Virus record (IMG/VR): IMGVR_UViG_3300031992_000080
Span: 1-64,000 of that record
DNA length: 64,000 nt
Direction: 5' to 3' (one strand)
Origin: a virus
Lineage: Duplodnaviria > Caudoviricetes
Positions 19,106-23,148 of this stretch are shown piece after piece. Made by a program: the position numbers and the translations under genes. The notes below the pieces were generated by a model. The model saw only the letters and a list, made by a program, of their open reading frames with translations, was not told the origin of the DNA and searched no databases. Every line of letters starts with the position of its first letter. The first letter of the stretch is position 1.

Positions 19106-19525
19106 TTATTCGGCGGCTCGCTTGCCGAGTTCAAATCCGGCGGCTTCCCCGCGCGCGTCTTTCCACCGCCCGACAACCTCCGCGAGTTCGTCCTTGTTGG
19201 TGACGAGTTCGCCCCAGAAGTAGACGCGGCTTGCGCTTGCGTTCGCTTCAATGTTGAGCGCGTCAAAGTAGGCTACGCGGTCGGGACTGTCCAGATTGTA
19301 TGGGTCAAGCCCCGCTTCCTCTGCGACCTTGTAGGCGGCATTGAGCGCGAGATCGTTAAAGAGCGCGTTGCCGACGGCATCGTAAGGCGGCGGGAATTCC
19401 TCTAGTTTCTCCGCGACGAGATCGGGCGTAATGTCCCCGCCCCATGCGCGCGCCCATTCATCAAGCGCGGCGGTGTCCTCACGCCCCAAGCCGAGGGCGA
19501 GACTGATTGCGGTTTTCGTGTCCAT
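19106..19525 (-). CDS. Acidic hypothetical protein
   Basis: AAGGAG RBS; D/E-rich. Confidence 0.7.
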   Translation of the reverse strand: MDTKTAISLALGLGREDTAALDEWARAWGGDITPDLVAEKLEEFPPPYDAVGNALFNDLALNAAYKVAEEAGLDPYNLDSPDRVAYFDALNIEANASASRVYFWGELVTNKDELAEVVGRWKDARGEAAGFELGKRAAE

Positions 19526-19580
19526 TGTTCTTCTCCTTGTTGTTCTGCCGCGCGGGATGTTGGCGGCGTTTGTTGTTGTT

Positions 19581-19643
19581 GACTTCCCGCGACACGCCCC
19601 TGCGTGTTTCGGCGCGTAGTCGGCGCGCCATCATCGGGCGGGA
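19581..19643 (-). ncRNA. Hammerhead ribozyme, type I topology, variant core
   Basis: 5'-UCCCGC CCGAUGA U GGCGCG CCGACUA CGCGCC GAA ACACGC AGGG GCGUGU C GCGGGA AGUC; three 6-bp helices, GUC site at 19591/19590, loop II GACU complementary to 3' AGUC. Confidence 0.8.
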
Positions 19644-19658
19644 GGGGCGTATCGTGTG

Positions 19659-21176
19659 CTAGGCGGCAAGGCTCCTTTCCAGTTGCTTGCGGTGTTTGCG
19701 GAACAGTTCGGCAAGTCTCTGCGCAACTTCGCGCGCGTCTGCGGGCGGCGTTGTGTTCTTTCGGGCGTAGCATTGCTTCACCTTCCATCCGTCCCCGATC
19801 TCAATGTCCACTCGCCCTTCGTCCTTGCCAGCAAGGGCGAGACACACGCAGTTTTGCGCGGCCATGTTCGCGGAGTAGGATCCGCCGCCAATGCAGTTGC
19901 CCATGTTGTTTCCTTCGCGCAAGAATTCATCCTGCGAGGTGAGCCAGACGATCTGCCAGTCTCCGAGATTGAGCTTATTTTCGTTCTTCTGGACAAGCGC
20001 GCGAAGCTTCTCCACGAATTCCGCGATCAGCGCGTCCCGCTCCGCTTGCGTCCGCGCGTAGATTGCGCGTTGCTTTTCAAGCTCCTTCTCCCTGCGCGCG
20101 TTCGCACGCGCCCATTCGCGCTCCCGCCGCCGCATTTCGCGCATCTGCTTCTTGTGGCGAATGCGTTCCGCTTTCTTGCGCGCTTCGTAGAACGCGGCGA
20201 AGTCGGTCGGGTAGGCGGTGCAACGGGCGCGCAGGTCAAGCCCTTCAAGCTTCGCGTTCGTCATGGCTTCGCAATAGCGCCCCGCGTCAATGCCGTGCTT
20301 CACGCAGTAGGCGTAGGCGGCGCGGATCGGGATTTCGGTCGGGCGAGACTGCCGGACGGCGGAGAAGAACACGCGCGGCGCGTTCCTTGCGCGTTCGCGC
20401 TCCTCCACATCCGCAAGGGTGCGCTTCCCGCTCCGGCTCATCCACACTAGATCGTTCCAGTTGTAGCGCGTGGCGAGTCCGGGATTCTGGATCAGCAGTT
20501 TCATCAGCACCTTGTTGCGGGCGAGTTCCGCACATTTCTTCGGGTTGCGGACGGGAGAAAAGCGGTAGGCGTTGAAGAGTCCGGCCTTGACAAGAAGCTC
20601 GGTCTTCGGGTCTTTGGCGTAGGCGTAGAGGATTTCCGCCAGTTGCTTTGCGTAGTTCGGGCAGTAGTTAGGCCAATGCTCCGTTGCGAGGAGCGCGGGA
20701 TCATCTGCCGCAAGCGGCTTCCACCCGCAGTAGCGGTAGCGGGAGCGGGCGAGGAGGTCTGCGCGGGCGAGGCAGTCGGACGGCAAGGCCATCGTCACGC
20801 CGTTCCAATCAAACCAGTTGTCCTCATCATCTTCGCGCCACGCCTGGTGGCAATAGTAGCCGGAGCAAGTCTGGTAGATGTTGTGCTTCGTGTTGTAGGC
20901 AACATTCCAGTCCACACACCAACCCGCAATCCCCTTCCAGTTGAGATCGTGGATGTAGATTCTGCCCTTCGCCGGGTTGAATTCGGCAATGGGCTTGACC
21001 TCCTTCTCTCCCCTGCGGCTTGCGACCGTGACGAGTTCCAGTCCGTCACGCCCCACCTTGCGGAAAAGGGTTGTGAAGATCGTTGTCCTGCTTTTGTCGG
21101 GAATCTTGACTTTCTCCCGATATTCGCGCGCCGCTTTCGTGACGGCGCGCAGTTCGGTCTTGTTGAGTTTCTTCAT
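19659..21176 (-). CDS. pcfJ: PcfJ-like protein
   Basis: C-terminal WLTSQDEFLREGNNMGNCIGG.Y...IEI...W.V.Q...R.N; paired with PcfK. Confidence 0.85.
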   Translation of the reverse strand: MKKLNKTELRAVTKAAREYREKVKIPDKSRTTIFTTLFRKVGRDGLELVTVASRRGEKEVKPIAEFNPAKGRIYIHDLNWKGIAGWCVDWNVAYNTKHNIYQTCSGYYCHQAWREDDEDNWFDWNGVTMALPSDCLARADLLARSRYRYCGWKPLAADDPALLATEHWPNYCPNYAKQLAEILYAYAKDPKTELLVKAGLFNAYRFSPVRNPKKCAELARNKVLMKLLIQNPGLATRYNWNDLVWMSRSGKRTLADVEERERARNAPRVFFSAVRQSRPTEIPIRAAYAYCVKHGIDAGRYCEAMTNAKLEGLDLRARCTAYPTDFAAFYEARKKAERIRHKKQMREMRRREREWARANARREKELEKQRAIYARTQAERDALIAEFVEKLRALVQKNENKLNLGDWQIVWLTSQDEFLREGNNMGNCIGGGSYSANMAAQNCVCLALAGKDEGRVDIEIGDGWKVKQCYARKNTTPPADAREVAQRLAELFRKHRKQLERSLAA

Positions 21177-21186
21177 GTCGCACCTC

Positions 21187-22188
21187 CTAGAAATCAAAGA
21201 GGGTCATCTGCGGGTCGGGCTTCTTCGGCGCGGGCTTCGGGATCACGGGCGGTTTGTAGTTGCCGGACGGCGGTGTGTAGGGCTTGGGCTTCGGCGTCGG
21301 CTTCCACTCGCAGTTGAGAGAGTCCTCCTCAAAGTAGTGCATGAGTTCGCAGAAAACATCCTCGTCCTCCGCGAAGTATCCGCGCGCGCCCTTCTCGGCT
21401 TTTTTCTGCGCCCATTCGTAGAGGTGATTCGCCGCGCCTTGCAGTGTTTTCTTTCCCTCTATCTTCGCGCGGAGTTCTGGGCTTGCGTTCTTGTCAAAGT
21501 AGGCTTTCAGCCGCTCTTCCATGTGGTTCGTGGCTTTCCACTCCCACTTCGGCGGCTTCTCCTCCTCCGGCTTGTCGGCGGGCTTCTCGTCCGTCTTGTC
21601 CTCGCCGTCCTTGTTGTCCTCCGGCTCGGCGGGATCGGGCGGCGTGTTCTCGCCGTCCGGCTTCTCGGCGGTCTTCTCTTCGCCGCCGAAAACGGACGGG
21701 AGGTTTCTCTGCAACGCCGTGTCAAGAGAGATGTCTCCCCGCTCGTCATTGGTCAGCGGACGGATTGCGACTTCGCCGGAGTCAAGGATCGTCACTTTGT
21801 CCTCGCCGTCCGTGCAGTAGTCCCGCTCGTTCTCGTCATCGTAGACTCGCCATCCGTGCGACTCCGCGACCTCCATCCAGTTGCTCGGCGTGTCCCCGCT
21901 CTCGTTGAGCCAGTCCGCAAAATCCTGCAAGGTCTTGATCTCCGGCGCGGTCTTGTTGTCGGTCTGCGGCGCGTTCTGCGCTTCGGGCGCGGGCGCGGTA
22001 TGCTCCGGCTCGGCGGCGGGTTTGGCGGGCGCGGGTTCGTCCGGCTTCTCGTCCGGCTTCGGCGCGTCCGTGGTCTGCGGCGCGGGCTTCATCTGCGCCA
22101 TCATCTGCGAGACTGCGGCGAGTTTCGCCGCCATCTCTTGTTTCATGCGCTCAAGCTCCGCAAGCGCGTTCTGTGCTTCTTCGTTCAT
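21187..22188 (-). CDS. pcfK: PcfK-like (AcrIIA9 family) protein with long N-terminal extension
   Basis: KKTLQGA..HLYEWAQKKA.KG.....DEDVF..LMHYFEED...QMTLFDF. Confidence 0.8.
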   Translation of the reverse strand: MNEEAQNALAELERMKQEMAAKLAAVSQMMAQMKPAPQTTDAPKPDEKPDEPAPAKPAAEPEHTAPAPEAQNAPQTDNKTAPEIKTLQDFADWLNESGDTPSNWMEVAESHGWRVYDDENERDYCTDGEDKVTILDSGEVAIRPLTNDERGDISLDTALQRNLPSVFGGEEKTAEKPDGENTPPDPAEPEDNKDGEDKTDEKPADKPEEEKPPKWEWKATNHMEERLKAYFDKNASPELRAKIEGKKTLQGAANHLYEWAQKKAEKGARGYFAEDEDVFCELMHYFEEDSLNCEWKPTPKPKPYTPPSGNYKPPVIPKPAPKKPDPQMTLFDF

Positions 22189-22221
22189 GGGGTTTTGCCC
22201 TTGTTGTTGTTCTTGTTGTGT

Positions 22222-22307
22222 GGCTTGCCATCATCGGCGCGCGGGTTGCCGTCCCTGCGCGGACACGCGCCCCGCCGGAAAGGACGGCGGCGGGGGCGTG
22301 TTTCGGC
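22222..22307 (-). ncRNA. Hammerhead ribozyme, type II topology, same variant core
   Basis: 5'-GCC GAA ACACGC[CCCCGCCG..CGGCGGGG]C GCGUGU C CGCGC A GGG ACGGCAA CCC GCGCG CCGAUGA U GGC; GUC site at 22262/22261; helix II only 3 bp. Confidence 0.65.
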
Positions 22308-22311
22308 TTGT

Positions 22312-23148
22312 CTACTTCGCCGCCCCGCCCTCCTTCTTCTCGCCGTTGTTGCGGATCGCGTCTTGGATCGTCTGCGGCGCGCCCTTCGGCGTGTGCGCGC
22401 CGGAAATGATCTGGAAGATGCCGTCGCGCTCCTCGGTGCGCGTCTCCTCCATCTCCATCAACTCCCCGCCGTTGGCTGTGAGCTTCGCCGCGTCCTCGTC
22501 CCCCATCGTCATGCACTCAACGATGGCGGCGAGACTGGCGCGCGTCCATTGCTCTGCGATTACGCCGACGAGCGCAAGGTCGGGAATGCTCGTTGTCTCG
22601 CCATCCGCGTTGTGTCCGGCGAACACCGCCGCGCCCGCAATCAGCCGTTCGCGTCCGGCGTTGAGGAAAAGCGCAGTTCCGGCGGGGTTGACTCCAGAAA
22701 CATCCCAGAATGCGTCCGCAATCCACATATCGCAACCGCGCCCGATGTCAACGCGATCAATCATCGCGCCGATATGTCCGCGCAAGTGTTCGTAGGTCTG
22801 CCCGCGCGAGACTGCCCACAACTCCAAGCGCGTCTCCGCGTCTCCGTCCTTGTTCTCCGTGAACGGAAACGCGGTGAGGAGCAGGGCTTTCTCGTTGTCT
22901 TCCGTCCGCAGGGGATGCCCCTGCGCGAAAGTCCATGCGATTGCGGTCTTGAAAAAGTCCTTGCCGACAAGCCGCGCTTGGATTGCGCGGCAACGCGGAT
23001 CGTGCGCGTCCGGGTTTTGAAGAATTTCGGAGGTGTAGATTTCGCGCCGGAGCAAGCGCGGCGCGTTGTTGTTGTTGTTTTTCATGGCGTTTTGCCTTTC
23101 GGGGTTGGGGTTTCGTGAAAATGGTGGGATTGCGGTATTGCGGCACAT
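22312..23148 (-). CDS. DUF3846-like protein
   Basis: HLRGHIGAMIDRVDI....DMWI......VNPAGT.L......IAG.AVF.GHNADGETTSIPD. Confidence 0.6.
   Translation of the reverse strand: MCRNTAIPPFSRNPNPERQNAMKNNNNNAPRLLRREIYTSEILQNPDAHDPRCRAIQARLVGKDFFKTAIAWTFAQGHPLRTEDNEKALLLTAFPFTENKDGDAETRLELWAVSRGQTYEHLRGHIGAMIDRVDIGRGCDMWIADAFWDVSGVNPAGTALFLNAGRERLIAGAAVFAGHNADGETTSIPDLALVGVIAEQWTRASLAAIVECMTMGDEDAAKLTANGGELMEMEETRTEERDGIFQIISGAHTPKGAPQTIQDAIRNNGEKKEGGAAK

Follow-up and report, generated by a model that had tools for sequence, protein, structure and literature searches.

A putative self-cleaving type I hammerhead with a U4C core behind the pcfJ-like gene of a phage

A 76-kb IMG/VR virus record almost certainly carries, on the minus strand directly behind a pcfJ-like gene, a genuine homolog of the hammerhead ribozyme. 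We read it, with a probability of roughly 0.7, as a self-cleaving type I hammerhead in a leftward polycistronic phage mRNA, where its predicted cleavage would uncouple the neighbouring genes. The reading draws on hammerhead homology, on helices and a pseudoknot that covary across a wider class of phage RNAs, and on conservation above the level of synonymous sites. The core has C in place of U at position 4, and we think it likely that the element still cleaves at a biologically useful rate; cleavage with C4 is probably slower than with U4, yet not abolished.

Results

Sequence and fold of the element

The window, by which we mean the whole 64,000-nucleotide stretch of the record that was analysed, contains the element on its minus strand. 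Read 5' to 3', its parts are as follows.

19643-19581, minus strand: type I hammerhead, between the pcfJ-like gene and a 139-aa ORF
19643-19638, minus strand: helix I, 5' strand UCCCGC, paired with 19590-19585
19637-19630, minus strand: core C3 C4 G5 A6 U7 G8 A9 plus an extra U (CCGAUGA-U), with C4 at 19636 and the extra U at 19630
19629-19611, minus strand: helix II hairpin GGCGCG-CCGACUA-CGCGCC, 19629-19624 paired with 19616-19611
19621-19618, minus strand: loop II bases GACU, pseudoknot partner of the tail AGUC
19610-19608, minus strand: core G12 A13 A14 (GAA)
19607-19592, minus strand: helix III hairpin ACACGC-AGGG-GCGUGU, 19607-19602 paired with 19597-19592; its ends are A15.1 (19607) and U16.1 (19592)
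19591/19590, minus strand: predicted cleavage site between C17 (19591) and G1.1 (19590), placed by position in the hammerhead consensus
19590-19585, minus strand: helix I, 3' strand GCGGGA
19584-19581, minus strand: 3' tail AGUC, partner of loop II GACU

These parts stand in the type I order of helix I 5' strand, core, helix II hairpin, GAA, helix III hairpin, H17 and helix I 3' strand, and a descriptor parses them with helices of 6, 6 and 6 bp. The conserved core residues C3, G5, A6, G8, A9, G12, A13, A14, the A15.1-U16.1 pair and H17 are all present, C17 lying within a GUC triplet, and the U that the strict consensus has at core position 4 is absent, its place being taken by the C at 19636. 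An earlier note on this DNA had described a complete hammerhead with three 6-bp helices, GAA and a GUC triplet, and a core reading CCGAUGA-U instead of CUGAUGA; the letters agree with it on every one of these points. Judged by its sequence, the element is a hammerhead homolog with a variant core and not a strict-consensus member.

The minimum-energy fold of a 76-nt stretch is exactly the three-way junction, and its energy is unremarkable for such a GC-rich RNA (z-score -0.95). The structure-pattern search with C4 allowed that the earlier note had proposed was run with a descriptor accepting any base at position 4, 0 or 1 extra nucleotide and helices of at least 5/4/4 bp. It matched the window at 19643-19581 alone, and none of 100 shuffles that preserved the window's composition gave a site; relaxed to 4/3/3 bp, it gave 0.08 sites per shuffled window.

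Gene context and a second hammerhead

The hammerhead starts 15 nt past the pcfJ stop codon (19661-19659), and 55 nt separate its end from the start codon of the 139-aa ORF (AUG at 19525). The neighbouring features are these.

19659..21197, minus strand: pcfJ-like gene, 512 aa (Pfam PF14284 PcfJ, E 2.4e-12)
19106..19525, minus strand: downstream ORF, 139 aa, with a syntenic 139-aa gene in contig L002
22219..22308, minus strand: second hammerhead, type II topology, core CCGAUGA-U, predicted cleavage after C22262

The pcfJ-like protein also matches PHROG 8470, a family of unknown function. Pfam and PHROGs assign no function to the downstream ORFs, and the 139-aa ORF has no family match in them. 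A search of the minus strand in the pcfJ gap found no promoter-like or terminator-like site, so the genes around the gap are probably co-transcribed.

The second hammerhead lies directly after a stop at 22312, on the same strand as the first. It folds into the hammerhead junction as its minimum-energy structure and is kept in L002 (L002:2140-2225). In a 201-nt search the type II hammerhead model RF02276, whose topology it shares, gives it 23.4 bits (E 0.008), short of the model's gathering score of 37; the main element, by comparison, is type I, with helix I open. With cuts predicted after 22262 and 19591, the pcfK-like gene and pcfJ are enclosed in about 2.67 kb, and the same arrangement of hammerheads bracketing genes has already been described in prophages (PMC3088659). 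In L013, too, a type II hammerhead sits beside the type I copy.

A wider class of phage hammerheads

Viral, metagenome and genome collections were first scanned with a pattern in which only the core (Y at positions 4 and 7), helix II and GAAAC were fixed. Of the roughly 50 loci that matched, 24 parse as complete type I hammerheads, and nearly all of these read CUGAYGA-U-GG. Many class members span from the stop codon of one gene to the ribosome-binding site of the next. Pattern matches with C4 in GC-rich bacterial coding regions lack helices I and III and were set aside as chance (L008, L009, L014, L020, L026, L029, L034, L041 and L048-L052). One narrow DNA pattern gave 0 matches; the single match to another (L007) arose by chance and has no hammerhead.

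Twenty class members, all from outside the clade to which the window belongs, went into a covariance model. It matches the window element over its full length with 66.2 bits (E 1.7e-17), a score to which the core and either helix II or helix I contribute partly by construction, as the patterns that fetched the members had fixed those parts. The next-best match in the window (17 bits, 22036-22115) falls within the pcfK-like ORF; its position 4 is A and helix III is missing, and we reject it as chance. Over the whole 76-kb genome the model found no further copy. In the collections it recovered copies beyond the reach of the pattern, with helix II reading GGCAAG/CUUGCC, GGCCUG/CAGGCC or GAGGG/CCCUC.

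In the 29 best sequences, 95.6% of cells form a standard pair, against 28-48% in controls with the partner shifted by 1-3 columns. Two-sided changes occur in 14 of the 18 helix pairs, and the observed pairing values were reached by none of 500 shuffles; the alignment behind these counts was fitted to the model, and with the core and helix II fixed by the patterns the independent signal is that of helices I and III. Helix covariation in homologs, whose absence the earlier note had named as one finding that would refute a hammerhead, is present.

The same note had thought a 4-bp pseudoknot possible between GACU of loop II and AGUC of the 3' tail, and this pairing proves to be real: it covaries across the class, with at least seven pairing types (GACU/AGUC, GACC/GGUC, UGGU/ACCA, CGGU/ACCG, UGGG/CCCA, GGCU/AGCC and UGGC/GCCA) and a tail that always begins 1-3 nt past helix I. 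The best Watson-Crick match averages 3.85 bp, compared with 2.94 bp after permutation of the tails across sequences, and 0 of 2000 permutations came as high.

Rfam gave no hammerhead match at 19643-19581 when the window was searched at gathering scores, and no match at E<=10 in the 301 nt around the hammerhead. Infernal with RF00163, put forward as a check in the earlier note, thus returned nothing at either threshold. The hammerhead models of Rfam 15 miss the whole class in the same way, at gathering scores or E<=10 and with canonical-core members included (L017, L035, L011, L040, L018 and 15 other loci); the miss is therefore uninformative for this site.

Two of the collected loci deserve mention in their own right. 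L037:7170-7290 is a CRISPR array, with repeat GTCGCTCCCCGTGCGGGGAGCGTGGATTGAAAT, in which a 35-nt spacer is identical to the 5' two-thirds of an L012-type hammerhead; a host therefore appears to target a phage at its ribozyme. Within about 2.7 kb of one phage contig (L039:1150-3900) lie two pistol and three twister-P5 ribozymes, each scoring above its Rfam gathering threshold, together with a hammerhead of the class.

The inserted U and the C4 core

Two further scans, in which helix I was anchored, helix II was free and position 4 was Y, gave more than 160 viral loci. Applied to the collected loci, the strict descriptor yielded 129 distinct complete hammerheads, distributed as follows.

U4 with inserted U: 109 of 129
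C4 with inserted U: 10 of 129
C4 without insert: 1 of 129
U4 with no insert or a different inserted base: 9 of 129

The extra U after A9 had been presented as a peculiarity of this core, known as a single insertion from a viroid hammerhead. Its compatibility with function stands; its oddity does not, for it is the standard form of the class. According to the account in PMC3705267, the CChMVd (+) hammerhead has an extra residue in the same place, between A9 and G10.1; the natural insert there is an A and is rare, whereas an inserted U is the rule in the phage class. With U as the insert after A9, the CChMVd hammerhead cleaved 3-4 fold faster, as that account reports (PMC3705267, citing De la Pena and Flores 2001).

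C4 is found in 11 of the 129 hammerheads (about 9%), from at least nine contigs with different helices. Three C4 copies with different helices occur on one contig (L096, 300-1800), and a dense array of the class, at least five copies in about 3 kb, includes one with C4 (L167:8700-12100). Among raw pattern matches the share is 14 of 154. Complete hammerheads make up 7 of the 14 C4 matches and 77 of the 140 U4 matches, and mean helix and pseudoknot lengths are equal in the two. Because completeness and these lengths match those of U4, we regard C4 as a recurrent minority state that is unassociated with visible decay; as far as the collected sequences go, U4C in the window is one instance of a recurrent variant (about 9%) and is not unique. 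One C4 copy, at L004:3562-3640 on the minus strand, has an intact core and helix II and has lost the geometry of helices I and III, the helix I partner lying about 30 nt too distant. An intact U4 copy is found 3 kb off, at L004:627-700; the C4 copy is likely to be a ribozyme in decay.

U4 supplies the U of the CUGA U-turn. Comprehensive mutagenesis of a type III hammerhead found all single mutants of this turn low in activity, and the sole active change within it was a C3:G8 double swap (PMC9901934). A natural viroid variant with U4C is considerably slower in vitro and still cleaves in vivo, as summarized in PMC3088659 (citing Ambros and Flores 1998). The 2011 survey of hammerheads dropped every match with a core mutation (PMC3088659), which is why C4 copies are missing from the catalogues.

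Conservation at orthologous sites

The window PcfJ has just two relatives in the protein collection, and both carry the element directly behind pcfJ. A scan of viral contigs with back-translated PcfJ peptides gave no match, nor did a blastn search of GenBank phages. In L003 and in a further contig, L021, the orthologous site has a canonical CUGAUGA core, with U at the equivalent of 19636, and both share with the window identical helices I and III and the GACU/AGUC pair. L002, at 86% PcfJ identity, retains C4. Three differences separate its hammerhead from that of the window: U7C, GU in place of UG where A9 meets helix II, and an inserted pair in helix III, a C:G pair compensated on both strands (ACCACGC/GCGUGGU). 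Position 7 is the free position of the hammerhead core. Contigs from three bovine-gut metagenomes, each from a different study, have exactly the L002 form, C4 included; these are DNA contigs, and a look-up of sequencing runs listed none of RNA with this sequence. From the canonical ortholog at the same site, and from C4 in L002 and the bovine-gut contigs, we take the C4 form to be fixed in a clade of ruminant-gut phages and not to be an assembly error.

Between the window and L002, pcfJ is 83.8% identical over the whole gene and 73% at third codon positions, and the downstream ORF 90% and 84%. The hammerheads are 92% identical, each difference being neutral or compensated and the core positions unchanged apart from the free U7. 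The 55-nt leader between the tail and the AUG is 55/55 identical (100%). That identity in hammerhead and leader exceeds identity at third codon positions, and that the core is unchanged, suggests that the fold, and modestly the core, remained under selection after U4C.

The downstream leader and an alternative hairpin

Four features flank the hammerhead or lie in the leader of the downstream gene.

19580..19526, minus strand: conserved 55-nt leader of the downstream ORF, with a CAA-rich tract
19557-19552, minus strand: second UCCCGC, within the leader
19538-19533, minus strand: Shine-Dalgarno AAGGAG, within the leader
19653-19643, minus strand: 5' arm of an alternative hairpin, GAUACGCCCCU, partner 19601-19591

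The first 44 nt of the leader are identical in L021 too. The second UCCCGC had been proposed to trap the new 5' end in a hairpin or to act as a switch against helix I. When the 3' product is folded, the minimum-energy structure does have this repeat paired to the new 5' end; the fold energy of the leader equals that of shuffles (z 0.05). A downstream repeat of the helix I strand is found in 15 of 127 class members, in none of them at a comparable distance. The proposal is not borne out: the pairing can form and is no feature of the class, and strict conservation of the leader is the one point in favour of a possible role for the repeat.

The better switch candidate may be an 11-bp hairpin, which we offer as a lead and not as a finding. 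In it, GAUACGCCCCU (19653-19643) pairs over 11 bp with AGGGGCGUGUC (19601-19591), C17 included, and the pairing is mutually exclusive with helices I and III. In an extended transcript the alternative fold has an energy of -36.2 kcal/mol, against -29.6 kcal/mol for the hammerhead fold with the pseudoknot term left unscored, and it has the lowest energy in the window, in L003 and in L021. When the upstream letters were shuffled 2000 times, a 12-nt complement arose once. Elsewhere in the class there is no comparable complementarity (observed mean 5.65, shuffled 5.81). Within the clade, every difference in the 5' arm of L021, L002 and X6 is compatible with pairing (such as U-G to C-G and A-U to G-U), and in L003 and L021 the hairpin is kept through two one-sided compatible changes. 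Terminating ribosomes could mask the 5' arm, since it begins 6 nt past the pcfJ stop codon.

Discussion

How might a hammerhead between two phage genes act? In the reading we favour, the 4-bp pseudoknot between GACU of loop II and the AGUC tail behind helix I would hold helices I and II together, and the RNA would cleave itself co-transcriptionally between C19591 and G19590. The pcfJ message would then end in a compact folded ribozyme with a 2',3'-cyclic phosphate, and the downstream message would begin with a 5'-OH, 65 nt ahead of the AUG at 19525, and carry the conserved CAA-rich leader. Together with the type II hammerhead at 22219-22308, cleavage would free a segment of about 2.67 kb, pcfK-like gene and pcfJ, from the operon transcript. 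Cleavage would in this way uncouple the fates of neighbouring messages; an effect on mRNA stability or expression is presumed.

Whether the element is a hammerhead at all is hardly in doubt. That the motif arose by chance, or is just a GC-rich intergenic hairpin or terminator of the ordinary kind, could be argued from the unremarkable fold energy (z-score -0.95) and from the silence of Rfam, which is just as silent on canonical members of the class. That reading is refuted by the homologs and the covariation, and with a canonical-core ortholog at the same site, a class-model E of 1.7e-17, 0 descriptor matches in 100 shuffled windows and a minus strand free of terminator-like sites, we give it next to no credence. 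The graver question is whether U4C disabled cleavage and left a catalytically dead relic, its folded RNA kept for another reason, for instance because it marks a boundary of processing or decay with a stable structure or is bound by a protein. Conservation of helices does not by itself prove catalysis, the accounts of U4 mutants in PMC9901934 and of U4C in PMC3088659 describe low activity, and the C4 copy at L004:3562-3640 has lost helices I and III. Against this, the other core positions are intact in both hammerheads of the clade at a divergence of 16-27% at third codon positions, C4 arose repeatedly in otherwise perfect hammerheads with the pseudoknot, three of them in L096, and the natural viroid variant with U4C is reported to self-cleave in vivo (PMC3088659). 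On balance we hold a dead relic, and with it either of these examples, to be unlikely, though it is an alternative to be reckoned with.

The 11-bp hairpin suggests a different elaboration, in which C4 makes a deliberately slow, gated ribozyme: the hairpin would sequester C17 together with strands of helices I and III, the RNA would refold to the active hammerhead only where ribosomes reach the pcfJ stop codon, and cleavage and release of the leader would report translation of pcfJ. We consider this improbable. It is quite improbable also in the barer form of a conformational gate, with the hairpin (19653-19643/19601-19591) as an uncleavable fold from which ribosomes terminating at the pcfJ stop would release the RNA and so couple cleavage to translation. 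The minimum-energy rank of the alternative fold in the window, L003 and L021 speaks for a gate, as do the rarity of the complement, which arose once in 2000 shuffles and which other class members lack, and the preservation of pairing by every difference of the 5' arm in L021, L002 and X6. Weighing against it, the hairpin shows no two-sided compensatory changes, is confined to one clade and is weakened by a bulge in L002; its 5' arm resembles a helix III strand and is possibly the leftover of a duplication, and the link to ribosomes is purely inferred. A self-cleaving hammerhead, probably slowed by C4, is the reading that we carry forward.

Intergenic hammerheads with a pseudoknot are already known from phages, and the window element is, on its sequence, a fairly ordinary member of that company, with a C4 core whose activity is putative. 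The phage and prophage hammerheads of Perreault et al. 2011 (PMC3088659) have the same core architecture and lie between phage genes; there, as in the window, a Watson-Crick pseudoknot between stems I and II replaces loop-loop contacts, and several of those ribozymes flank single genes or short gene blocks. C4 copies, on the other hand, were excluded from that survey by design, and the window element is a type I hammerhead whose pseudoknot forms from loop II and the 3' tail and which Rfam 15 does not detect. It is also reminiscent of the viroid U4C variant (Ambros and Flores 1998, via PMC3088659), which has the same single core substitution. In the account given there, the viroid variant is a replication ribozyme of an RNA genome, whereas the window element belongs to the mRNA of a DNA phage, with a C4 that is fixed in its clade and present in about 9% of its class.

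The element adds a well-supported case to a large class of phage hammerheads that goes undetected by the standard RNA catalogue, and in which C stands in place of the supposedly invariant U4 in about one of 11 members, in independent lineages and in otherwise intact hammerheads. If C4 copies cleave, the consensus used in hammerhead searches is too strict, and a scaffold of inserted U and pseudoknot tolerates a change in the U-turn that cripples model ribozymes. The pair of putative ribozymes around the pcfK-like gene and pcfJ would offer a simple system for the role of phage hammerheads in gene expression.
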